DNA from: a phage
Length of the DNA stretch: 64,000 bases
Reading direction: 5' to 3' (one strand)
Sequence record: PQ478073.1
Shown: one piece after another, positions 37 to 37,172 of the stretch
Layout: each line of letters opens with the position of its first letter
Numbering within the stretch: position 1 is the stretch's first letter
Notes under the pieces: model-generated
What the model was told of the DNA's origin: nothing
What the model saw: the letters and a program-made list of their open reading frames with translations, nothing else
Database searches by the model: none
Translations under genes and position numbers: made by a program

Positions 37-252
37 ATGGATACTTTCCAATTCATCTATACCAGTACTGATAACATTGAAGAAATTGAATTTCAAAACA
101 ATACATTAAGTCCATGTAGTAGTGTTATAACCTTTATGTCATATCTATGGTCAACTAAAACAAGTGCTGTTGTATATAGTTCAAATTATACACAAGATAG
201 TATTGTTGAATCATATAAAGTTCTAAAGGAATACTATGAAAATAACAAATGA
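37..252 (+). CDS. hypothetical protein; frame is open to position 1, so the gene may start upstream of the window
   Basis: ORF track; ATG at 37; frame open from window edge. Confidence 0.45.
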   Translation: MDTFQFIYTSTDNIEEIEFQNNTLSPCSSVITFMSYLWSTKTSAVVYSSNYTQDSIVESYKVLKEYYENNK

Positions 253-817
253 TTTTATTAAAAGTGTAGTACACCCTATGCTTAGTATTATGAAAAAAAT
301 ACAGAATCTACCGGAAGATAACGATTACAAGTTTAATCGTTTTGATTCAGATGTGTTTTGTATTGAAATTGAAATTAATAACAATCGCAATTTACATTTA
401 AAATTCAAAGAATCTTCGAGTCCGTACTACAACTTTGATATGAATTTTAAAATAGATACTGACATTGAAGAAAACATAATATCAAATCATACTAGCAAAA
501 ATGGTTTTATGCATAGAACTACTATGTACAATAATAAAAATAGTATTATATCTAAATGGAATCAACAATTCACTAAAATTTGTGAAATTGAATATAATGA
601 TTTTGGTGAAGAACATTACTTTCAGTTAAGTACAATTCATGAACTTCCACCATATGATTATGTTAAAACATGGTTTGATATTCATAATATAATTGATGAT
701 GCAATCAAACTTCCATTTGGTGTGTCAATATCATATACTGCTCCTAAAACATTTGTTTTTACTGAAGATATGATTATGAAAAAGATATGGGCAATTATCC
801 CACTTATGATGGATTAA
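236..817 (+). CDS. hypothetical protein, dispersed paralog family F (shared EEHxFQLSTxHxL motif)
   Basis: ORF track; AAAGGA RBS before ATG; motif EEHYFQLSTIHELPPYDY. Confidence 0.65.
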   Translation: MKITNDFIKSVVHPMLSIMKKIQNLPEDNDYKFNRFDSDVFCIEIEINNNRNLHLKFKESSSPYYNFDMNFKIDTDIEENIISNHTSKNGFMHRTTMYNNKNSIISKWNQQFTKICEIEYNDFGEEHYFQLSTIHELPPYDYVKTWFDIHNIIDDAIKLPFGVSISYTAPKTFVFTEDMIMKKIWAIIPLMMD

Positions 818-823
818 ATTCGT

Positions 824-848
824 ACCAGGGGTTGACTCTGGTATTTTT
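824..848 (+). terminator. putative rho-independent terminator
   Basis: short stem ACCAG/CTGGT followed by T-run. Confidence 0.35.
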
Positions 849-878
849 GTATGATACATTGTCCTAAAGGAGAATTTT

Positions 879-1430
879 ATGAACTACAATCATGATCTTT
901 TTACATTATGTGCATCCAAATGTGTTGATGGATGGACAGATAAAATCAATACCATAATTCATCGATATCTGGTCTTTAGTTCTCGTGCACGAAGTGAGGG
1001 GGCTATGGATTTCAAATATACACTATCTATTGATGGTGTAACTATCCATGCAGACGAAGAACGTCTGAGCATTAATTTGTATGATTCCTGTGTATTTGCT
1101 ATTCACCAAAAGATGGGGAAAGGATGGGGTTGTAATAACATTAACTCAAAAGCTATCTTTTGGGTTGGTCACCACCAGACAGTACTTGATCCTTCAATCA
1201 AATCTAATCTTTTATCCGATAATATGGTTTATGATTTATTGTACTCCGAAGAACAACATTTTCAGTTAAGTACATTACATGATCTGGCACAGTACGAGGA
1301 TTGTTACAAAACATTAGAACTATGCCATTCCCTTGAACTTAAAGATAAATTGATACAAGTTTACCCTTCATTCTTTCATGAAGAAGTACAAAGTACACTA
1401 GATCATATTTTATATGGATACGATAAATGA
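879..1430 (+). CDS. hypothetical protein, paralog family F
   Basis: ORF track; AAGGAG RBS; motif EEQHFQLSTLHDLAQYED. Confidence 0.7.
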   Translation: MNYNHDLFTLCASKCVDGWTDKINTIIHRYLVFSSRARSEGAMDFKYTLSIDGVTIHADEERLSINLYDSCVFAIHQKMGKGWGCNNINSKAIFWVGHHQTVLDPSIKSNLLSDNMVYDLLYSEEQHFQLSTLHDLAQYEDCYKTLELCHSLELKDKLIQVYPSFFHEEVQSTLDHILYGYDK

Positions 1431-2029
1431 GAAAAAGTTATCAAGAAGCTATTGACTTAATTCGTGAAGTTATCAAGGTGGCTCCTGCTGCTATTGAGTT
1501 CAAGAAGTCCATATACAAGAAGTATGGGTCAATGTCGAGTATGTGCTTTCAAAAGAAACGTAGAGCATTCACTACCCAGTACTGGAATGATTCTATCATC
1601 CTGAGCAATGAGACTCAGCGTATTTTAACACTAGAATCTGAACCTAATGAGTACGGGGAAGGGAACATTTGTGTACCTGATTATGATGAAATTAACTTCA
1701 ACTGCGGTGATTTTGAAACAACATTATTACTTCATGAGGGTTATCCAGAAGGTGATGTATTAGCTGAGTACAATCCAAAAACTAAAATTCTCAAAAGAGG
1801 AATCCAGTTCACTATTAATAACAAAGATGATGTTCAAGCAGCACTGATGCAACTGAGTACAAGTGAACCTATCACTATTAGTGTAGAAGAGTTATGGGGA
1901 ATTATTTCGGTACTCAATGAGTGCTACAAAGTAAAATCATTGCGTAAACACAGCATTATATTACATACCAATATGGCAAATATAAAATGTAAGCACATTC
2001 AAGAAATGGTGGTTCCAGATGGACTTTAA
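1427..2029 (+). CDS. hypothetical protein
   Basis: ORF track; ATGA start/stop overlap with upstream gene. Confidence 0.65.
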   Translation: MRKSYQEAIDLIREVIKVAPAAIEFKKSIYKKYGSMSSMCFQKKRRAFTTQYWNDSIILSNETQRILTLESEPNEYGEGNICVPDYDEINFNCGDFETTLLLHEGYPEGDVLAEYNPKTKILKRGIQFTINNKDDVQAALMQLSTSEPITISVEELWGIISVLNECYKVKSLRKHSIILHTNMANIKCKHIQEMVVPDGL

Positions 2030-2603
2030 AGAAATTGAAAGTAAATTAAAGTACTTCAAAGATATCAAACTTCTTTGGAAAAAGTATAAAGTTGATTACA
2101 ATTTCAGTGATGATGAGACAATAAAATACATTGAGATTAATATCAAAATCAAGTTCAAGAATAATAATTATGGTGAAGTAACCTTAAATCATACTGGTAT
2201 ATCACTCAAGGACTATGATGGTACAACACTCGCATATTTTGACTTCACACCAGAACCAGGTGAAACACTACTTAGTGAGATAAATTCCTATGACATGGAA
2301 GTGTTCGGCGGGAATCCGTTACTGTTCCGACTTTCTGAAGAGTGGAGTGAAGAGTACTACACTTACAAAGATGGTGTAGTACTTGACATTCATGGAGAAG
2401 TTGTGAATGACTTGGAAGAACGTTTGTTCCAAGAATTGTGTGTTTCAAATACTTCATATGCATACAATCATATCCTTGACATGTTTGATTTATATAGTAA
2501 AATAGATGCTGAAATGAAGGCACATGGTATTCATTACCTTACAATTAACGACTATGCTCAACTCGAAACCGCTGTGAAAGCATTGACTAAAGTACTGAAA
2601 TAG
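2019..2603 (+). CDS. hypothetical protein
   Basis: ORF track; + strand tiling. Confidence 0.6.
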   Translation: MDFKEIESKLKYFKDIKLLWKKYKVDYNFSDDETIKYIEINIKIKFKNNNYGEVTLNHTGISLKDYDGTTLAYFDFTPEPGETLLSEINSYDMEVFGGNPLLFRLSEEWSEEYYTYKDGVVLDIHGEVVNDLEERLFQELCVSNTSYAYNHILDMFDLYSKIDAEMKAHGIHYLTINDYAQLETAVKALTKVLK

Positions 2604-2612
2604 GAATGAAAT

Positions 2613-3026
2613 ATGAAACTGTATCATGCGAGTACTGTAAAAATTGATAACTTTTATATCCCGTATGGTGGTCTTCATATGGGAGGTAAACACAGTGCTT
2701 TGGAAGCTGCATTACGCAAGCTGAGAAGCCCACTGAACGTAGTAGACGCATGTACAGTATACTTGCATACCTTAGAAGTTGATGTTGATAACGTGCTTCT
2801 GTGTGAAGATTTAGGCAGTGATGATGAGTGGCGTTCACTTATTGAGAATTGCACTGCTCAAGGTTATGATGCTGTTCAGTACAAAAATGACTACGAGCCT
2901 GATAATGTTCCTAGTTATATGATTTGGGATGCATCTAAAGTTCGCATCATTGAAGTTGATGCTATGCATATGGATGAAGCTGAAATGATTATCGAAGATT
3001 TTCTTGATGAATATGAAGGTGTATAA
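2613..3026 (+). CDS. hypothetical protein
   Basis: ORF track; + strand tiling. Confidence 0.6.
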   Translation: MKLYHASTVKIDNFYIPYGGLHMGGKHSALEAALRKLRSPLNVVDACTVYLHTLEVDVDNVLLCEDLGSDDEWRSLIENCTAQGYDAVQYKNDYEPDNVPSYMIWDASKVRIIEVDAMHMDEAEMIIEDFLDEYEGV

Positions 3027-3562
3027 TGACTGACCCGATGGTAGCACTGGCACGTACTAAGTTACTATTAAAGATTGGTGAGATTTTTACGGTTCTTCTG
3101 TCCAATAATATTGATATTACTGAGCTAGATATTAAGCAACCGTGGGAAGTGACTATGTTCTCGGCGTTCCACCGATTGTCATATAAAGGTGAAAGTGTTC
3201 TTGATTTTAACCCTAAAGCAAAATTCATAGATTATGCTGCGTTGTACAGAGAGTTGCACCGAAATATTTATTCCGGTTGTATAACCAATAACTTCAAAGA
3301 AATTAAAGTTCAAACTGCATCACATGAGTTCAATGATTTACTTTATCCAGAATTTAATCTAACTGAAGAATTACTCTTTCAGTACTCGTTAATTCTCACA
3401 AATCTCGAAACGTTAGAGTACTACAAAGAGTTAGTAGATATTTTTATGAATACACGACTTTCAAAAGATATTGTGATATTCTGGTATACAGAGCATGTTA
3501 CGGAGGAATTGCTTACTGAATTTCTTCTAAATATGACAGCTATAAAGGAGAAGTTATGTTAG
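3026..3562 (+). CDS. hypothetical protein (possible distant family F member)
   Basis: ORF track; start overlaps upstream stop. Confidence 0.6.
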   Translation: MTDPMVALARTKLLLKIGEIFTVLLSNNIDITELDIKQPWEVTMFSAFHRLSYKGESVLDFNPKAKFIDYAALYRELHRNIYSGCITNNFKEIKVQTASHEFNDLLYPEFNLTEELLFQYSLILTNLETLEYYKELVDIFMNTRLSKDIVIFWYTEHVTEELLTEFLLNMTAIKEKLC

Positions 3563-4029
3563 ATATTTTAGGAAACATTGATACTGCAAATTATTTTATC
3601 CAGGACGCACTGTTCAATACAGTTCAACATGGATTAGAAGTTCGTCATAACGTTTACCAAGGTGATGGTTATTTCGTTGATATTGTTGAGGCACGAAAGA
3701 ATACGTTTAATGTTAACATTACAACACTGGGTAGACAGAACATTGCACGAATTTTAGTAAGTAAAGATGAAATTGTATTGAGATACAGTGCTAAGTTTAT
3801 GTTGACTTATAAGAAAAAAACTGATATGTTCAGTACTAATTTATTTGATGAGCCATTTGACCTTGAAGATATTGAAGCTACTTTCTTTACTCAAAGTACT
3901 ATGGTAAAATACACTGATGTTCAATTTTCTGCTGATGTAATGTCAGAAACATTACAAATGATCAAGGTATTATTTTATGCATTTGAGCAATTTAGAGAAG
4001 AAAGAAACAAGGTTAACAACCACAGATGA
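3556..4029 (+). CDS. hypothetical protein
   Basis: ORF track. Confidence 0.6.
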   Translation: MLDILGNIDTANYFIQDALFNTVQHGLEVRHNVYQGDGYFVDIVEARKNTFNVNITTLGRQNIARILVSKDEIVLRYSAKFMLTYKKKTDMFSTNLFDEPFDLEDIEATFFTQSTMVKYTDVQFSADVMSETLQMIKVLFYAFEQFREERNKVNNHR

Positions 4030-4390
4030 ACTAATAGAGGCGATCACTAAGGAGTCAAAATACCACAAAGGGATTCGTCTATATTTTATAGATATTGGTT
4101 CAATGGAAGGCATATACATTTATGGTTCACAATCTTTATCTTATGATGTAATGCCAAAAAAACATGTAAAAATCTTTTTAGGTTCAGATAAAAAAACTTT
4201 CTTGACAATTAATGATAAAAACGTTATTATGAATTCGTTGGGTCATGATAAGGTGGAAATTGATCTAAACACACTGGAGGATATTGATTTTTTTCAATAC
4301 GAGTGTTTAGGTGTTGACTTACATGGCATTAGTAGCGATATGATAAAATCATTAATCAAATATTTCGAAGGTGTTCATAAATGTATCTAA
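3977..4390 (+). CDS. hypothetical protein (start uncertain; 53-nt overlap with upstream ORF)
   Basis: ORF track. Confidence 0.45.
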   Translation: MHLSNLEKKETRLTTTDELIEAITKESKYHKGIRLYFIDIGSMEGIYIYGSQSLSYDVMPKKHVKIFLGSDKKTFLTINDKNVIMNSLGHDKVEIDLNTLEDIDFFQYECLGVDLHGISSDMIKSLIKYFEGVHKCI

Positions 4391-4878
4391 CTAAATCAAT
4401 GAAAAATTCATTTGATAAAATCAAGAGTTGTCTTGATGGGGAAAATATTACAAGTGTTACACAAACTGCTGACCAAATTCAAAGCAGTTCAAGTGATTGT
4501 ACTGTTATTTTAGGTTTACATAGTCTACGTTTATCAATAGTAAATAATATTGACAACACTGCTATTGTAATCACACCATGCCATATTCAAAATGAGAATG
4601 GTGTATATCTTCATCACATGGGAACAGTATTTCATATTTTCAATACAAACGAAAACATTGTTAAGGAATACAAATCTCTTAATATTGATTCAGGTGAATT
4701 ATTTCAAATGAGTACTTTGTACTCATGTAATTTTACAGATACTTCATGTATTTTGCCATTTTTCTTGGAAATTATTAAGAAAATGGAAAATTTAAAACGT
4801 GAATACAATAAAGAAATGGTTCCTGAAGCTATATTAAATATTACTAATGCTATAGAGAAGTATAATGCAGTGACTTAA
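4381..4878 (+). CDS. hypothetical protein, paralog family F-like (ELFQMSTLY motif)
   Basis: ORF track. Confidence 0.6.
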   Translation: MYLTKSMKNSFDKIKSCLDGENITSVTQTADQIQSSSSDCTVILGLHSLRLSIVNNIDNTAIVITPCHIQNENGVYLHHMGTVFHIFNTNENIVKEYKSLNIDSGELFQMSTLYSCNFTDTSCILPFFLEIIKKMENLKREYNKEMVPEAILNITNAIEKYNAVT

Positions 4879-4920
4879 TAAAAACGCACATGGAGTGCAT
4901 TAGAAGATCAAGGATAGATC

Positions 4921-5394
4921 ATGGAGATTAAAACTGTTGAAAATGGGAAAATTGATGACATTTTAGAGTTGGACGCATTCAAAGTTCATGATATAATGTT
5001 TAATGTGAAGGACATTATTCAATGTCTATTTTTGTGTAGCAAGACAATGCATGATTTTTTTCACAACCCAAATACTAACGTTTTTATACTAACAATCAGT
5101 ACTGAAAACTCGTTTATCATGGGTATGCCTATGAGTACAAATGAACAATATATTGATTGTGTTATTCGTAATAACGATAGTATTACGCCACAATCTGAAG
5201 TACGTAAAAAGAAAAACACCTACACAATCAAAGATGATAAAATTATGATGTGCTGTAGTAAAGGGTTTATATTAGATAATTTTATCGTCAAAGACAGTTA
5301 TCACGACTTTAAAGTGTCTGAAAATCAATCCAATGTAGTTCTTTATGCGAGTGACATAGAAAGTCTAACAGTTAAAGATCCCAGTTTGGAGTAA
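4921..5394 (+). CDS. hypothetical protein
   Basis: ORF track; GGA RBS. Confidence 0.6.
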   Translation: MEIKTVENGKIDDILELDAFKVHDIMFNVKDIIQCLFLCSKTMHDFFHNPNTNVFILTISTENSFIMGMPMSTNEQYIDCVIRNNDSITPQSEVRKKKNTYTIKDDKIMMCCSKGFILDNFIVKDSYHDFKVSENQSNVVLYASDIESLTVKDPSLE

Positions 5395-5396
5395 GT

Positions 5397-5528
5397 ATGG
5401 CTAAAAATGTAAACAACTTTGTACAAAAGCATATGAATGAGTTTAATAAACCTCAAACACATGTGGACCGTAAAAAAGCAATGAAGAATGGTAAAGTAAA
5501 ACACAAGTCGAGATTTATTCTCGACTAA
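5397..5528 (+). CDS. small basic protein (about 43 aa), below ORF-track size cutoff
   Basis: hand-read ORF MAKNVNNFVQKHMNEF...; GGAG 6 nt upstream; terminator follows. Confidence 0.4.
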   Translation: MAKNVNNFVQKHMNEFNKPQTHVDRKKAMKNGKVKHKSRFILD

Positions 5529-5536
5529 TTTTTTAT
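5507..5536 (+). terminator. rho-independent terminator
   Basis: stem GTCGAGA/TCTCGAC, loop TTTAT, then T-run. Confidence 0.6.
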
Positions 5537-5561
5537 CCGAAATTTAGGAGATTGTATTACT

Positions 5562-6410
5562 ATGGATACAACAGATTTTCTTAATTTTAAAAAGTATTCA
5601 GTACTTGAACATATCAACGAATTTCTGAATTCCCCAACACCATTTGGTATCAGTACATCAGATACATACGATGGATATAGAATCTTCCCATGCAATGACT
5701 TTCAAATTTCTGTCAAAAAAGGTACTTCAAAAGAAGTTGCAATTCGTGATGTAGTACTGTATAGCGATTCTTCTATTTATTACTGTCATGATGTGAACAA
5801 TTTTGAATCTCTTTCAACACCTAATTGTTCATACTACAAATCCAATGACACAATGATGTACAAAGAAGAACACATCAATGGGGTTTCGTTTTATAAAACC
5901 GCCAGCGATAAATCATATACATCTAGAGATGATTTTGGAAAATATACATGCACTATGTATACGGATGATGAAAAATCAAATCGTATTCATTCATTCGAAT
6001 CCAAATTCAAAGAGAGTGAAGTTTCAAATATCACTATACAAGAAAAGGTTACCGAAGATGGTGTTGTGTATCGTAGTACTGCATTCTTCCGAATGAAAGA
6101 TATTGCAACTGGTCGCCCAATGATGTATAATATTGACATATTCATGAAAGGTGAATCATCGGAAGTGGTGATTAGTACTGGTTATCGTGAAAAATATACA
6201 GTTACAATGGAATCACCAGATGCATCATTAGTTCATCTCTTTAACAATTTATATACATTCCAATTCGAACTTAGTTTCGTTCCAAATGAATATCAAATAT
6301 TTGATATATTAAAAAGTAATATTATTAATAAGTTAGAATATTACTACAAGTTAGGTGGTAAGATGTGCATAGTTAATACTATGTTACATAACATAAAAGA
6401 AACATTATAA
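5562..6410 (+). CDS. hypothetical protein
   Basis: ORF track; GGAG RBS. Confidence 0.7.
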   Translation: MDTTDFLNFKKYSVLEHINEFLNSPTPFGISTSDTYDGYRIFPCNDFQISVKKGTSKEVAIRDVVLYSDSSIYYCHDVNNFESLSTPNCSYYKSNDTMMYKEEHINGVSFYKTASDKSYTSRDDFGKYTCTMYTDDEKSNRIHSFESKFKESEVSNITIQEKVTEDGVVYRSTAFFRMKDIATGRPMMYNIDIFMKGESSEVVISTGYREKYTVTMESPDASLVHLFNNLYTFQFELSFVPNEYQIFDILKSNIINKLEYYYKLGGKMCIVNTMLHNIKETL

Positions 6411-6426
6411 ATCTGGAGGATTTGGT

Positions 6427-6720
6427 ATGGATACTAAATTCAAAATTATTTTTAAAACTAAGCCGTATATTCCACATACAGCAGAACGTTTTATACCACA
6501 TGGTGCTGAGGAAATTATTCACCAAGATGGTACTAAGTTATACCTTGTTCCTTGTTCTTATGAACGTGCAGTAGAAATGTTACTAATGAATGCTAGACTA
6601 TGCAAAAACAAGTACATTAGTTACCTATACAATGAACATATTTTAGATTTCAATGATGAAAATATGTTCATTCTAGCAATTGAGGATTTTGATAACTGGT
6701 ACAATATTATTAAAATCTAA
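6427..6720 (+). CDS. hypothetical protein
   Basis: ORF track; GGAGGA RBS. Confidence 0.6.
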   Translation: MDTKFKIIFKTKPYIPHTAERFIPHGAEEIIHQDGTKLYLVPCSYERAVEMLLMNARLCKNKYISYLYNEHILDFNDENMFILAIEDFDNWYNIIKI

Positions 6721-6728
6721 TGAAAATA

Positions 6729-6775
6729 ATGTGAACATATTAGATTCTTGTGATATAATGTTCACATCTTTTTTT
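6729..6775 (+). terminator. hairpin terminator whose loop carries a -10 element
   Basis: 10-bp inverted repeat ATGTGAACAT / ATGTTCACAT followed by T-run. Confidence 0.5.
6731..6759 (+). promoter_or_regulatory. sigma70-like promoter with extended -10 (TGaTATAAT)
   Basis: TGATATAAT about 35 nt upstream of gene start at 6792; weak -35. Confidence 0.45.
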
Positions 6776-30062: not shown

Positions 30063-30758
30063 ATGGTTGAACAATTCATGTTTGGTGGTTATGCTAATGG
30101 CGAAGTACGTAACATTTCTATTCCTTACGTAGTTGAGAAAGTTAATGGTTCAGAACGTACATATGATCTAGCATCTCGTATGATGCAAGACCGTATCATT
30201 TTCCTTGATACTGATTTCAATGATCAAATGGCACATATCATCAAACAACAATTGGTGTGGTTAGACTCACAAGGTGATTCCCCTATTACATTCTACATTA
30301 GTTCACCTGGTGGTTCAGTACACGCAGGTTTGGGTATTGCAGACGTTGCTAAGTCTTGTATTTCCCCAATCCGCACTGTAGTTATGGGTTATGCGGCATC
30401 AATGGGTTGCTATACACAATCTGTTATTGGAACTAAAGGTTTCCGTTTAGGTGGTAAACGCTCATACTTCATGTGTCACCAAGTAAGTTCTGGTACACAA
30501 GGTCTAATTACAGACCAGAAGATTTCCCTACAACATTCTGATGCACTGAATACATTGTTGACCAAAGAAATTGCAGAAGCAGTAGGCGTATCACATGAAC
30601 AATTACTAAAAGATGCTGACCGCGATTTGTGGTTAAATGCAGAAGAAGCACTTGAATATGGTGAACATGGTTTCATTGATGGTATTATTCTTGGACCGCG
30701 TAACGAAGAAGGCAAGTACTTAGTTAAGCGTCGCGGCGGTGTGGAAGAGTGGGTGTAA
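30063..30758 (+). CDS. ClpP-family serine protease
   Basis: SSPGGSV, GYAASMG (Ser), CHQ (His) pattern typical of ClpP. Confidence 0.8.
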   Translation: MVEQFMFGGYANGEVRNISIPYVVEKVNGSERTYDLASRMMQDRIIFLDTDFNDQMAHIIKQQLVWLDSQGDSPITFYISSPGGSVHAGLGIADVAKSCISPIRTVVMGYAASMGCYTQSVIGTKGFRLGGKRSYFMCHQVSSGTQGLITDQKISLQHSDALNTLLTKEIAEAVGVSHEQLLKDADRDLWLNAEEALEYGEHGFIDGIILGPRNEEGKYLVKRRGGVEEWV

Positions 30759-32714: not shown

Positions 32715-33150
32715 GGAAAGTAAATGTATTTCACAAAAAGTTGGTTGTGTTATTGTTAAAAATAATAGAGTATTGAGTACTGGATACAATGGAACGCCAT
32801 CTAAGCAGCCAAACTGTTGTGATGTAAATCAACATTTAGTGAACGATGGTCGTTTTCAAGACTGGGTTGATGATGCAGCAAAACATGAACATCATGAGTG
32901 GAGTAATATTCATGAGATCCATGCAGAGATGAACGCTTTACTGTATAGTTCTCCTACTGAACGCCAAGGAGCAACTCTTTACACAACTCTACAACCATGC
33001 TATACTTGTTCTAAGTTAATCGCAGGTAGTGGGATTACCCGTGTAATTTATCACAAAAGTTATCCACGAACACCACCTGAAGCGATTAAAGTACTGGAAG
33101 ATGCTGGGATTATTGTTAACTGCATTTATGACAAGGGTATGAATCAATGA
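32671..33150 (+). CDS. cd: dCMP deaminase
   Basis: zinc-binding HAEMNAL ... PCYTCSKLI; GGAG RBS before ATG at 32671. Confidence 0.8.
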   Translation: MKHTTWLKIAEVVAEESKCISQKVGCVIVKNNRVLSTGYNGTPSKQPNCCDVNQHLVNDGRFQDWVDDAAKHEHHEWSNIHEIHAEMNALLYSSPTERQGATLYTTLQPCYTCSKLIAGSGITRVIYHKSYPRTPPEAIKVLEDAGIIVNCIYDKGMNQ

Positions 33151-33401
33151 CATTTATGATTGTTGGATTACTATCAATATTAGTATTATTTTTTATAACA
33201 GTAATGTTTGTTATTGATGATAATGACATTTCTCAACGAAACTATGAAGTGCGTTTTTCTGCACAAAATAATAAGTACTATATTGTAAACTGTATACACC
33301 GTAGTGAGAAAAGGGTAACAAGTAGATTTGGATTTACCATTTATTATAAAGACCGAGTAGAAGCTGACATGATTTGTCAGAAGCTTAATACTGTAGAATA
33401 A
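33147..33401 (+). CDS. small membrane protein
   Basis: ORF track; hydrophobic N-terminus; ATGA coupling. Confidence 0.5.
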   Translation: MTFMIVGLLSILVLFFITVMFVIDDNDISQRNYEVRFSAQNNKYYIVNCIHRSEKRVTSRFGFTIYYKDRVEADMICQKLNTVE

Positions 33402-33429
33402 AAAAAGGAGCCAGAAGGCTCCTTTTTTG
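33399..33429. terminator. bidirectional rho-independent terminator between convergent genes
   Basis: A-run, stem GGAGCC/GGCTCC, T-run. Confidence 0.75.
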
Positions 33430-33807
33430 TTAACCAGGGATGTTACAATAATACAAATCCCAAGGGTGATATTTCATTTCTCCAGTACTCAATTTAATTT
33501 TATGAAACTGGAATGATTCGGCAAATGCACTATCATCAATCTTAATACAAAAAGTATTTTTTGCTAAAGTTGGTGCAATCTCTAGTGCAGTTTTAGTTGC
33601 ATCTAATCTGATTTTATCTTTATCAAAACTTGTTATAGTTACAAAACGATAAACATTAAAATCAGTGTCGATAAGATCGTAAACACAACTAGAACGTTGA
33701 TTAAAGATGTTCAAGTTATATTTCAATTCACCGTTTATATTAGCGGCGGTTACACAAAAGCCGCCGATATTGAATGGTAATTTACCTTGTGCTGCTATAG
33801 CTTTCAT
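33430..33807 (-). CDS. hypothetical protein (125 aa), the only clear reverse-strand gene
   Basis: ORF track; AGAGGA RBS on - strand; N-terminus GKLPFNIGGF. Confidence 0.65.
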   Translation of the reverse strand: MKAIAAQGKLPFNIGGFCVTAANINGELKYNLNIFNQRSSCVYDLIDTDFNVYRFVTITSFDKDKIRLDATKTALEIAPTLAKNTFCIKIDDSAFAESFQFHKIKLSTGEMKYHPWDLYYCNIPG

Positions 33808-33935
33808 ATTTTATTTCCTCTTATTAATAAACAACTACTTTTACAGATTGTTGTACCTTTTATATTTACACCGTCAACTAAATATCCACCTAAAGTGAAT
33901 GGAAATTGGTCTTGTCCTGCGATTGGTTCCCCCAT
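33804..33935 (-). CDS. short ORF (43 aa) sharing the N-terminal motif of the downstream - strand gene
   Basis: hand-read MGEPIAGQDQFPFTLGGYLVDGVNIKG...; AGGAG RBS; stop overlaps next start (ATGA). Confidence 0.4.
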   Translation of the reverse strand: MGEPIAGQDQFPFTLGGYLVDGVNIKGTTICKSSCLLIRGNKI

Positions 33936-33960
33936 TAAGGGCACTCCTTATAAAAAAGCT

Positions 33961-33989
33961 TTACATTTGGTATGGGTTTGTGATAGAAT
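33961..33989 (+). promoter_or_regulatory. sigma70-like promoter TTACAT-17-TAGAAT
   Basis: about 130 nt upstream of gene at 34117. Confidence 0.4.
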
Positions 33990-34116
33990 CTTCACAGTGA
34001 TTGTACTAAGGGGATTATCAGATGAGGGAAATTTGAGTTAAGTACAGAAAAAGTTTGACTTAAGTGTTTAAGTACTATATTATTTATATCTTCCTAACCA
34101 AAATTAAGGATTTGTT

Positions 34117-34725
34117 ATGAAAAGACTATGGCTTGAGGTAGTACAAGCAGTAATGCTTCTGATGTTGATAAATTTTCCAGCCAGTGCTGGTGTTGAAAGT
34201 AAAAATGTGATAAAGTACAATCCTGAAACACGTAATGTATATTTCATCTCAGATATTACGGATGGGTCACTAAAGCGTATGATGGAGTTGTATGATAAAG
34301 AACACTATGATACCATTACCATCACATCGCCAGGTGGTGATTTTGATGCTGGGATTAAAATGGCAAACTTCGTTAGAGACAATGGTATAAATTTAATTGT
34401 TTCTAGGTATTGCAACTCAGCATGTACTGTGGTATTCTTCAGTGTAGCTTTTGAAAAGCGATACATGATAAATCGCTCAGTACTGGGACTTCATAACATT
34501 TCTATTAAAAGTAATGTTAAAGACGGTGATAATTCTTTTGTATCAGTTAGGCAGCTATCAACTTTTACTGAAGAAATGGCAACTAAAGTAGGTTTTCTAT
34601 TTACACTATATTCTGCAAATGGAATTCCACCAGACGTTCTATATAAAGTTAGCCGTTCGCGTGGTGAAGATGTTGTAATATTAACAAAACCAGAACTGGT
34701 TTTTTACGGTTCAGTCAAACAATAA
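34117..34725 (+). CDS. signal-peptide ClpP-fold serine protease-like protein
   Basis: N-terminal signal-like segment; ITITSPGGDFDAG and NSAC/GLHN resemble ClpP core. Confidence 0.55.
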   Translation: MKRLWLEVVQAVMLLMLINFPASAGVESKNVIKYNPETRNVYFISDITDGSLKRMMELYDKEHYDTITITSPGGDFDAGIKMANFVRDNGINLIVSRYCNSACTVVFFSVAFEKRYMINRSVLGLHNISIKSNVKDGDNSFVSVRQLSTFTEEMATKVGFLFTLYSANGIPPDVLYKVSRSRGEDVVILTKPELVFYGSVKQ

Positions 34726-34795
34726 AAATAATTAAAATAACAGGATGATTATGATGTACTTCCTTTGTTATTAATTATATTGAGATTATATAACT

Positions 34796-35056
34796 ATGAC
34801 AAACATCCAAAATTTGACATCTATTATTTTTTATGCTACAGTAGTGATGTATATTACTGTACTTTTCCTAACAGTTTTCATTTACAAAGATTACAAAAAT
34901 GGCTTTATTGATAACACAACAATGAAGTTCAATTCAAAGTTTGAAGCAATAATTTATTATGTTCTGGCAACATCATATTTGGTGTGTCTAATGTTATTAG
35001 GTACATTGATTTATATTTTATATACAACTTTATTTGCAATTGGAGCTATTTTATGA
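34796..35056 (+). CDS. small membrane protein
   Basis: ORF track; two hydrophobic segments. Confidence 0.5.
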   Translation: MTNIQNLTSIIFYATVVMYITVLFLTVFIYKDYKNGFIDNTTMKFNSKFEAIIYYVLATSYLVCLMLLGTLIYILYTTLFAIGAIL

Positions 35057-35649
35057 CATGTATCATTGCACACACTGATGGTGTAACTTCTTTTATTGCA
35101 GGGGACAAACTGGGAAGTAACGGGTTCACAAAGTCCGTTCAAACTGAGCCTAAAGTATTTGAGAAAGAATTCATTAAAATCAATGATGATGCTGGTTTGA
35201 CCCGTACAAAAGAAATTATGGCGATTGGTTACACCACATCATTCCGTATGGGTCAACTTCTTACTTACAGTTTGAATCTACCACAGCAAGATGCAAATGA
35301 GACGTTTCCACAGTACTTAGTACTGAAAGTTATTCCTATTATTCGTCAAATGTTCAAAGAGGAATGGGGTTCTCGTGATCCTTCACAAGAAGTAGGTGGT
35401 GGACAGTTCATCATTCTTCACAATCATACAATTTATGAAGTTCAAGAAGATTTTTCAGTTCTTCAACCGAAAACACGAATCACCGCCGTAGGTAGCGGAA
35501 CATATCATGCTATTGCAGCAATGCAAGCATATATTGAAGTTGAAAATGAATCAAAAGTGCCACTACATGAACGCATCAAATCAATTTTTAAAATTGTCAG
35601 TGATAATGTAACTAGTGTAAGTGCCGAGTTTGATGTTTTAAAGTATTAA
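35053..35649 (+). CDS. HslV / proteasome beta-subunit-like hydrolase
   Basis: Thr after initiator Met; IAGDKLGSNG and TAVGSGTYHAIAA parallel HslV; GGAG RBS before ATG at 35053. Confidence 0.6.
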   Translation: MTCIIAHTDGVTSFIAGDKLGSNGFTKSVQTEPKVFEKEFIKINDDAGLTRTKEIMAIGYTTSFRMGQLLTYSLNLPQQDANETFPQYLVLKVIPIIRQMFKEEWGSRDPSQEVGGGQFIILHNHTIYEVQEDFSVLQPKTRITAVGSGTYHAIAAMQAYIEVENESKVPLHERIKSIFKIVSDNVTSVSAEFDVLKY

Positions 35650-35667
35650 AATTATAAGAGAGAATAG

Positions 35668-35862
35668 ATGATGGCATACACAATTTATGAATGGGTTTTG
35701 AGTTTTTTTATAGTTTTTTCTATTGTTGTAATTTATAACAATGCTAAATGCTTATACAGGGACTTGAAATCCAATGGTTATCACAAAGATAATAATTTTA
35801 TGTATGCCTATCATATTGGAATAATTCTGTTATTATCAATATATTTAATTGGTTTTTCATAA
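35668..35862 (+). CDS. small membrane protein
   Basis: ORF track; hydrophobic. Confidence 0.45.
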   Translation: MMAYTIYEWVLSFFIVFSIVVIYNNAKCLYRDLKSNGYHKDNNFMYAYHIGIILLLSIYLIGFS

Positions 35863-35871
35863 GGATTGAAT

Positions 35872-36624
35872 ATGATATCAGAAAAATTTATAAGTAATGA
35901 AGGTAAAAAAAGATTACTGATTATATCTGGTGCAGGACTTTCTGTTGAAAGTGGTATGGAACCTTTTCGATTTGATGATGGTTTGTGGGATACATTTAAA
36001 ATCAATGATGTATGTAACATTGCTAGTTTAACTACGAAATATCACGTTGTTCATTCCTTCTATAATACATTACGTGTAAAATTGGGACAATGCGAACCCA
36101 ATGCAATGCATTATTTTATAAAATCGTTAGAAGATCAATATGGTGATTGCTTCCTTCATATGACTTCTAACATGGATGATCTTTATACTCGTATCGGTGG
36201 TCATGAGCTTAAACTTCATGGAAACTTGTGCGAAGTTATTGAAAATTATAGTATCAATTCCGATGATTATAATGTTATTAACTGCGGATACGAACCATAC
36301 ATACCAAAACATGATGTTTTTGCTAAACCAAATGTAGTAATGATTGGAGAATATCATCGTTATGTTGATGGTATTCGCTTACCAATTTACGAAGAACGAA
36401 ATAATGTGTTGAAATCTCTTAATGAAAATGATACAGTTATTGTAATTGGTAGTAGCGATACAGTACTAGTATGGTCGAGATTAGCAGCAGCATTACCATG
36501 TTATAGTGTTAATGTTAACATTCGTAAAAATGATAATGATTTTTTGTTTAATGAAAAAGTTATCAAGCCAGCAACCAAAGCAATACCACATCTAGAGACT
36601 ATAATTAAGGAACGTATGAAATGA
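35872..36624 (+). CDS. Sir2-family (sirtuin-like) NAD-dependent enzyme
   Basis: GAGLSVESGMEPFR NAD-binding motif; HG catalytic pair; GSS near C-terminus; AAGGA RBS. Confidence 0.75.
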   Translation: MISEKFISNEGKKRLLIISGAGLSVESGMEPFRFDDGLWDTFKINDVCNIASLTTKYHVVHSFYNTLRVKLGQCEPNAMHYFIKSLEDQYGDCFLHMTSNMDDLYTRIGGHELKLHGNLCEVIENYSINSDDYNVINCGYEPYIPKHDVFAKPNVVMIGEYHRYVDGIRLPIYEERNNVLKSLNENDTVIVIGSSDTVLVWSRLAAALPCYSVNVNIRKNDNDFLFNEKVIKPATKAIPHLETIIKERMK

Positions 36625-37172
36625 GTGTTAAAGAAGTTCCCTTTGGTGAATATGGCTCACGTGCAAATTTTGTATTTTGTTATTTCTTTGCAAGAAAATG
36701 TAACCCTTACAAAAACTATGAGTTGAATGATATACCAGAAGTAAATTTAGTTTTACTACAATTACGATGGGATGGTCTTCTTGGTGGATGTGGTGGAACC
36801 GTAGAAAGTACTGATATCTCACTAGAAGATGCGTTGCGTCGTGAAGTTCAAGAAGAAATGGATTACAATATTTTTGTTTCCCATCTTCGACCACTCAAAA
36901 CTTTTGAAATTTACCCAGGTGCAAACAGTCATAGTTTTAGCTATGAAGTAAGCTATGACGAGTTGAAACACATTAGAGATGGATACACTAATGCTAAACA
37001 TGCGAGTGCTGAAGTTGCTGGTGTAAATTTATGTCATATTTCTCGTTATTCTAAGGGACAAAATCGAGAAGCGGGATATAATAATCTTATGACACAGAAC
37101 TTCATTGGTACAGCAAAACAAGAATTGGAGTATCTGGTTCAAAAAGAAAACTTACTAATTAGTTATCTATAG
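36621..37172 (+). CDS. Nudix hydrolase
   Basis: Nudix box GGCGGTVESTDISLEDALRREVQEE; ATGA coupling to Sir2 gene. Confidence 0.7.
   Translation: MSVKEVPFGEYGSRANFVFCYFFARKCNPYKNYELNDIPEVNLVLLQLRWDGLLGGCGGTVESTDISLEDALRREVQEEMDYNIFVSHLRPLKTFEIYPGANSHSFSYEVSYDELKHIRDGYTNAKHASAEVAGVNLCHISRYSKGQNREAGYNNLMTQNFIGTAKQELEYLVQKENLLISYL

Follow-up and report, generated by a model that had tools for sequence, protein, structure and literature searches.

A small gene in the 64,000-nucleotide stretch of phage DNA analyzed here (PQ478073.1, hereafter the window) encodes what is probably a Sec-exported, ATP-independent serine-histidine hydrolase of the ClpP fold that acts in the periplasm; we give this reading a probability of roughly 60%. 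The initial annotation had pointed to a ClpP-fold gene with a signal-like N-terminus at positions 34117-34725, and the open reading frame, the sequence motifs and the structural model agree in confirming it. Its further proposal, that the product is an exported protease at work in the periplasm or envelope, stands insofar as the signal-like N-terminus, the Ser and His residues and the export signals found throughout the protein family all favor it, export itself being predicted; the roles it suggested, at receptors, in lysis or in superinfection exclusion, are hypothetical. The ClpP-likeness of the protein is already public through RefSeq annotation; what is new here is the export signal and the placement of the protein in a family, both absent from the annotations examined. 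The gene has the following features:

34055..34083 (+): candidate sigma-70-like promoter, TTGACT-17 nt-TATTAT, 34 nt upstream of the ATG, scoring 10/12 in a consensus scan
34106..34110 (+): putative Shine-Dalgarno sequence AAGGA, 6 nt before the ATG, read from the sequence
34117..34725 (+): coding sequence of the 202-amino acid ClpP-fold protein (121Q gp473), stop codon included
34117..34188 (+): predicted Sec (signal peptidase I) signal peptide, residues 1-24, MKRLWLEVVQAVMLLMLINFPASA, by the n/h/c and -3/-1 rules, with the predicted cut between A24 and G25
34189..34722 (+): predicted mature domain, residues 25-202, of the ClpP/crotonase fold, approximately 20 kDa with a calculated pI of 7.9
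34327..34338 (+): S71-P-G-G74, ClpP-type oxyanion-hole motif, with S71, G73 and G74 invariant in 76/76 aligned members
34411..34425 (+): C99-N-S101-A-C103, predicted nucleophile Ser between two invariant Cys, from alignment with ClpP and family conservation
34492..34494 (+): His126 (GLHN), predicted general base, from alignment with the ClpP His and kept in 75/76 members

A conserved gene of jumbo phages

Over positions 33000-36000, the window shares 99.6% identity with Escherichia phage 121Q, a jumbo myovirus (genus Asteriusvirus, genome 348.5 kb), and approximately 89% with other Asteriusvirus phages (PBECO4, phAPEC6, G17, Sharanji and others). The protein encoded by 34117..34725 (+) is 100% identical to the product of 121Q gene 473 (YP_009102060), which RefSeq names "protease (ClpP-like)", and we refer to it as gp473. 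The open reading frame has 202 codons, the ATG is the first possible start, and phrog_26024 ("protease") matches the product over its full length with an E value of 9e-119. Gene 473 is a real, conserved gene. Orthologues are present in all Asteriusvirus genomes, with identities of 92-93% in the PBECO4 group, approximately 68% in UE-S1 and ph0011, and 43-54% in the others. Beyond Asteriusvirus, they are found in the Klebsiella phages RaK2 and K64-1 (approximately 35% identity), in Erwinia phage Hallingskeid (34%) and in EJP2 (33%). A search of bacterial genomes with the alignment of this phage clade gave no match, and the same search of IMG/VR returned only 121Q itself and three weak matches.

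The neighbors of gene 473 are genes for dCMP deaminase, Sir2 and Nudix proteins, and the orthologues share the same place, right after the dCMP deaminase gene and near genes of NAD metabolism. Downstream of gene 473, positions 35866..37172 (+) hold the Sir2-like deacylase and Nudix hydrolase genes, and the corresponding region of RaK2 and Hallingskeid holds cytidyltransferase and nicotinamide phosphoribosyltransferase genes. This downstream region is an NAD-metabolism cluster, typical of phage countermeasures to NAD depletion. None of the PADLOC defense-system models matched gp473. The gene directly downstream varies between phages, and gene 474 does not adjoin the orthologues in RaK2 or Hallingskeid.

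The TTGACT-17-TATTAT pattern upstream of gene 473 is unique in the window. It lies inside a block of approximately 70 nt that is 100% identical to phAPEC6, and the rest of the intergenic region, further upstream, has diverged. Judged from the sequence, gene 473 would have its own promoter for the host RNA polymerase and would not be a late structural gene.

The ClpP fold and its Ser-His pair

Profile scores of gp473 against ClpP are low. Pfam CLP_protease matches with an E value of 0.0069 and 16.7 bits, below its gathering score of 20.2; the NCBIfam ClpP models give 18-24 bits, against cutoffs of 228-251; and a profile of ten orthologues gives a weak match to the ClpP chains of the PDB (E 0.018). 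The AlphaFold2 model of the full-length monomer, made with a 76-sequence alignment, has a mean pLDDT of 94.3 and a pTM of 0.83. Foldseek matches this model to M. tuberculosis ClpP1P2 (E 4e-08) and, in BFVD, first to the RaK2 orthologue and then to viral ClpP-like proteins. Despite the weak sequence scores, the AlphaFold2 model and the Foldseek matches settle the ClpP fold of gp473, and the ClpP-like core proposed in the initial annotation is thereby borne out.

The same is true of the catalytic residues that had been picked out by eye, Ser in NSAC and His in GLHN: in the HMMER alignment with Thermus ClpP, Ser101 and His126 fall on the catalytic Ser and His, and neither residue is missing. The two are 25 residues apart, as they are in E. 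coli ClpP (S111 and H136), and the spacing from the SPGG motif to the Ser is 30 residues in gp473 and 32 in E. coli ClpP. In the model, Ser101 is placed between strand 92-100 and helix 102-109, which is the position expected of the nucleophile. Asp185 of gp473 is at most one residue from the aligned ClpP Asp (Asp171 of E. coli ClpP); an acid is present at this site in only 26 of the 76 members, and a search of the 76-member alignment for a conserved third acidic residue found none. The model has a beta-hairpin (31-35, 40-44) following a linker near the N-terminus, and it has neither helix A nor a ClpP axial loop. The long helix after the His (144-167), which is the "handle" of ClpP, is retained, and with it ring assembly is possible, judging from the model.

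C99 and C103, on either side of the predicted nucleophile, are the only two Cys residues of gp473. In the geometry of a nucleophile elbow, Cys residues at -2 and +2 across the strand-turn-helix would be close enough for a disulfide, and a C99-C103 disulfide is predicted. A structural or redox-gating disulfide is the most economical explanation because the Cys pair is invariant in the family and because of the parity statistics of Cys residues described below.

The signal-like N-terminus

The N-terminus of gp473 is laid out as MKR-LWLE-VVQAVMLLMLINF-PASA, followed by G25. The n-region contains the basic residues K2 and R3 and has a net charge of +1. The h-region, V8-F20, consists of 13 uncharged residues with an 11-residue Kyte-Doolittle mean of 2.78. 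The c-region, P21-A22-S23-A24 before G25, has a proline as helix breaker and Ala at both -3 and -1. Our signal test was a hand-written n/h/c plus -3/-1 rule, not a trained predictor. It detects 10/10 E. coli control signal peptides, flags 13 of the 82 window open reading frames of at least 100 amino acids as background (approximately 16%), several of these being genuine membrane or lipoprotein genes, and on a single sequence has moderate specificity only. By this test, the secretion-signal-like segment noticed at the outset does have the n/h/c layout, and its character is kept across the orthologues.

In the AlphaFold2 model, a helix (2-18) is followed by a low-confidence linker (21-30), which coincides with the predicted cut and has a block mean pLDDT of 61, and then by the confident core. 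The core modeled alone, from Gly25, has a pLDDT of 95.1 and a pTM of 0.89, compared with 0.83 for the full-length protein, and because the core alone models at least as confidently, the fold does not depend on the N-terminal helix. The helix itself is modeled with high pLDDT, which we counted against a signal peptide. Within the signal-like segment, Glu7 and Gln10, in the pattern (K/R)-E-h-h-Q, are invariant, a trait confined to the jumbo-phage clade; they are unusual for Sec signals and keep alive the reading of the segment as a signal anchor. Across the phage clade, F20-P21 is kept, and so is the hydrophobic character of the segment. The Hallingskeid segment ends in S-S-A before E, which is a canonical site, and the RaK2 segment ends in F-P-S-H-D, with no good AxA cleavage site. 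A Tat signal was rejected, there being no twin-arginine motif in gp473, and so was a lipoprotein signal, there being no Cys in the first 98 residues. Both the export and the cleavage of gp473 are predictions.

A probably exported family with a Cys-flanked predicted nucleophile

A phmmer search of 1.84 billion representative proteins identified 400 relatives of gp473 at E <= 1e-3. From the 150 listed of these 400 relatives, together with the matches of a profile search, a family signature was drawn. S-x-G-G comes first; the Ser of the C-x-S-x-C that follows is 30 residues beyond the Ser of S-x-G-G, and a His comes 23-25 residues after that second Ser. All of these motifs are present in gp473 behind the N-terminal signal-like segment. 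In the 76-member alignment, C99 and C103 are invariant along with S71, G73 and G74, and S101 and H126 are each found in 75/76; among the single-domain members, C-x-S-x-C is present in 198/199. No invariant Lys was found among the 76 aligned members, and an S49-type Ser-Lys enzyme was rejected on that ground; position 115 is Lys or Arg in 67/76 (K 35, R 32). CLP_protease matches only 19 of the 76 members, all NCBIfam matches are far under their cutoffs, and the C-x-S-x-C family has no Pfam or NCBIfam model of its own.

In the great majority of homologues, the N-terminus has either a textbook signal peptide, such as MKRLLILALVLFGVFTFQSNA before H, or a lipoprotein signal, such as MKPLCLLIVAMLAG before C, in the position that the signal-like segment occupies in gp473. 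The signal rule is positive in 177-197 of 253 homologues (70-78%), compared with 13/82 of the window open reading frames, and 46-49 of the rule-positive homologues have lipoboxes. Counted after residue 30, Cys residues are even in number in 169 of 198 members, with 106 members having exactly two, and an even-Cys bias of this kind is typical of disulfide-bonded exported proteins. One member (P0057) is fused to an OmpA-type peptidoglycan-binding domain (E 2e-17) and another (P0084) to PG_binding_1 (E 2e-4). Such peptidoglycan-binding fusions are few; LprI and Sel1 domains are fused to other multidomain members. Export of the family is supported because of the signals and lipoboxes, the even Cys counts, and the OmpA, PG-binding and LprI fusions.

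Members are encoded on Bradyrhizobium chromosomes and on replicons of Sinorhizobium and Phaeobacter; those of the latter two are named in RefSeq either "ATP-dependent Clp protease proteolytic subunit" or "hypothetical protein". Further members are encoded in a mobile region of Vibrio aestuarianus, in the leading region of a Providencia plasmid and on a Pseudohongiellaceae chromosome. The named hosts are all Proteobacteria, apart from one metagenome bin labeled Blastocatellia. The Vibrio, Providencia and Pseudohongiellaceae neighborhoods are heterogeneous, share no common gene partner and give no functional clue. Cluster look-up of the family returned "hypothetical protein" as the only name, and our literature search found no characterized or experimentally studied member. 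The family, we presume, may be the same as COG3904 ("predicted periplasmic protein").

Relation to known ClpP-fold and clan SK enzymes

With ClpP (MEROPS S14, PF00574), gp473 shares the fold and the Ser-His chemistry. In place of the axial loops and helix A that gate the ClpP pore and dock AAA+ partners, however, gp473 has an export signal, and its family has no conserved Asp and has two invariant Cys residues flanking the Ser. It falls outside ClpP by curated score, by the N-terminal gating and docking elements, and probably by the Asp. The periplasm provides neither ATP nor an AAA+ partner. The signal peptide peptidases SppA/SohB (MEROPS S49) and the membrane proteases NfeD/STOPP use a Ser-Lys dyad, whereas gp473 keeps the His at the ClpP position and has no invariant Lys. 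SppA, SohB and NfeD are tandem or membrane-anchored, whereas gp473 is predicted to be a single small soluble domain. What gp473 has in common with SppA, SohB, NfeD and Prc is membership of clan SK, a location outside the cytoplasm and independence from ATP, the location and the ATP independence being predicted for gp473. Prc/Tsp and CtpA are periplasmic serine peptidases that have a Ser-Lys dyad and a PDZ domain and are much larger, and no sequence match of gp473 to them was seen. Their catalytic domain (MEROPS S41, clan SK) is related to the ClpP/crotonase fold (PMC12419801).

The ClpP-related prohead proteases (NF045542; PHROG 94, 1684) are like gp473 in being phage-encoded, in having the ClpP fold and a Ser-His pair, and in giving weak profile matches. 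They are cytoplasmic, their genes belong to the head module, and fusion to a scaffold or capsid protein is frequent among them, whereas gp473 has a predicted export signal, is encoded outside the structural module, and has an orthologue that is not in the phAPEC6 virion. Within the ClpP/crotonase superfamily, we consider gp473 best placed in a Ser-His branch that is as yet unnamed, is exported and has its Ser flanked by Cys.

Alternative explanations

The phage does encode a canonical ClpP of the cytoplasmic type, the product of 121Q gene 464 (30063..30758, +), which scores 141 bits with Pfam CLP_protease. It has a canonical N-terminus, the motifs G-Y-A-A-S-M-G, M-C-H-Q and D-A-D-R-D, a full Ser-His-Asp set and no signal. 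The products of genes 464 and 473 give only a marginal alignment, and the notion of gp473 as a copy of the phage ClpP was rejected, the CLP_protease scores being 16.7 bits for gp473 and 141 for gene 464. RefSeq labels gene 464 "head maturation protease". This label is doubtful, since the proteomics of phAPEC6 points to a T4-type prohead protease elsewhere: gp227c in the virion table is the T4-type "prohead core scaffold and protease" (PMC7247149). The phAPEC6 orthologue of gp473 is gp346c, which does not appear in the virion mass-spectrometry table, although the product of the neighboring gene, gp347, does (PMC7247149); a head-maturation role for gp473 is thus improbable.

The ClpP fold and the Ser-His pair would also suit a cytoplasmic protein, one option being a second proteolytic subunit partnered with host ClpX or ClpA or with the phage ClpP, the other a protease of head maturation. 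The weak match to NCBIfam Clp_rel_HeadMat (E 5e-4; 49/76 members) and the matches to PHROG head-protease families go in the same direction, as do those homologue records that say "head maturation protease" or "ATP-dependent Clp protease proteolytic subunit". We nevertheless regard a cytoplasmic role as very improbable. A hydrophobic signal-like segment and a beta-hairpin replace the axial loop and helix A, both of which are present in the gene 464 product, and the family scores are far under the cutoffs (20 versus 120 bits). Gene 473 is situated amid genes of nucleotide and NAD metabolism, its product is not in the phAPEC6 virion, and the T4-type prohead protease is in the head module. Family-wide export signals, Cys parity and peptidoglycan-binding fusions likewise argue against a cytoplasmic location. 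Head maturation and a second cytoplasmic ClpP were accordingly rejected as candidates, on the low profile scores, the lack of a virion orthologue and the distinct ClpP gene 464.

Two other possibilities accept that the domain is outside the cytoplasm. In one, the N-terminal helix stays on as an uncleaved anchor that holds the ClpP-fold domain at the inner membrane on its periplasmic side, in the manner of SppA and NfeD; as an extension, a membrane partner might be contacted through the conserved Glu7 and Gln10. We consider this unlikely. The uncharged stretch is just 13 residues long and ends in P-A-S-A before G, a textbook signal peptidase I site. The best 19-residue window has a crude insertion energy of about +4.5 kcal/mol, an approximate, position-independent sum on the Hessa scale, and by this approximate measure the segment is too polar for a stable transmembrane anchor. 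Gene 474, moreover, is not next to the RaK2 or Hallingskeid orthologues, and in most bacterial members the signal is an ordinary cleavable one or a lipobox. The remaining possibility is that gp473 is exported without being a protease, as a hydrolase of the peptidoglycan stem peptide or of a lipid or other acyl ester, or as an inert binding protein. Against this, every one of the top structural matches is a ClpP peptidase, and the near invariance of the Ser, the His and the oxyanion glycines speaks for a working acyl-enzyme mechanism and against an inert protein; we think an exported non-protease decidedly unlikely. The present evidence fits peptide as well as other acyl substrates. By analogy, peptide bonds would be the default substrate of ClpP-like Ser-His enzymes, and the peptidoglycan-binding fusions leave wall-associated substrates possible.

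Proposed mode of action and its significance

If gp473 is a Sec-exported, ATP-independent hydrolase, as we favor, its pre-protein would be made early or in mid-infection from the sigma-70-like promoter of gene 473. The 24-residue signal peptide would take the pre-protein through the Sec translocon, signal peptidase I would cut after A-S-A24, and a ClpP-fold domain of approximately 20 kDa would be released into the periplasm. There, C99 and C103 would probably be joined by DsbA, giving a disulfide across the nucleophile turn. Independently of ATP, the mature domain would then act as a serine hydrolase, in all likelihood a peptidase. Its substrate would be in the envelope or periplasm, catalysis would be by Ser101 and His126, and the S71-x-G-G loop would form the oxyanion hole. 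Its catalytic activity, expression timing and oligomeric state are what we infer from the features described above. The Rak2-like jumbo phages would have acquired their copy from the widespread, exported C-x-S-x-C family of the Proteobacteria.

Among phage proteins with a known periplasmic role, lysis factors and superinfection-exclusion proteins predominate, and we did not find a phage periplasmic protease described in the literature. In a bolder form of our proposal, gp473 would be the first such protease, clamped by the C-x-S-x-C disulfide, active only after export and oxidation, and cutting envelope or periplasmic host proteins early in infection; taken as a whole, this form is speculative and rather unlikely. 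Were it true, candidate targets would include receptors, with superinfection exclusion as the outcome, and periplasmic anti-phage effectors of the HxsA type (PMC13128918), and a large group of ClpP-like proteins of the bacterial periplasm that has gone unstudied would gain a function as well. HxsA is a periplasmic anti-phage effector and marks the periplasm as contested ground (PMC13128918); it has no demonstrated link to gp473. If gp473 is exported and active, envelope proteolysis joins the tools of jumbo phages. The analysis also draws attention to a sizeable Proteobacterial family to which automated pipelines give the label "ATP-dependent Clp protease proteolytic subunit", although its members are almost certainly located where both ATP and a Clp ATPase are absent. 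A structural oddity of the family is its invariant Cys-x-Ser-x-Cys at the nucleophile, which may form a disulfide that couples activity to export. The practical gain is modest pending a substrate.

Other genes of the region and a bacterial neighborhood

Gene 471 (33430..33807, -) is divergent from gene 473 and encodes a virion structural protein of 125 amino acids (phrog_33171), for which RefSeq notes an Ig domain; it is a lone structural gene amid the metabolic region. Its phAPEC6 orthologue, gp347, was detected in the virion at 75% coverage (PMC7247149). On the other side of gene 473, gene 474 (34796..35056, +) encodes a very hydrophobic protein of 86 amino acids with no family match, and gene 475 (35053..35649, +) encodes an HslV-family peptidase (phrog_1040, E 1e-23) with a Thr directly after the initiator Met. 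Gene 474 overlaps the start of gene 475 by 4 nt, a hint that a membrane protein and an Ntn-type peptidase are translated in a coupled manner. Counting genes 464 and 473 along with gene 475, the phage encodes three chambered-protease homologues within 6 kb.

Membership of gene 473 in a lysis cassette is unsupported, the Rz-like spanin pair being at 62029-62708, approximately 27 kb away, a distance that lends no support to a role in lysis. The first gene of this pair (62029..62403, +) encodes an Rz-like i-spanin (phrog_1152, E 7e-29). The second (62400..62708, +) overlaps it by 4 nt and encodes a small lipobox protein (MKKLLVPFISFLIISG before C; phrog_2425) that is probably the o-spanin.

In V. 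aestuarianus (GCA_028858255.1, locus L003, positions 196-6753), the family member is divergent beside a gene for a 61-amino acid peptide. The same region encodes a radical-SAM enzyme, an HlyD-like adaptor, a C39-peptidase ABC exporter and a LuxR regulator, with transposases at its flanks, and it looks like a cluster of the RiPP or bacteriocin type.
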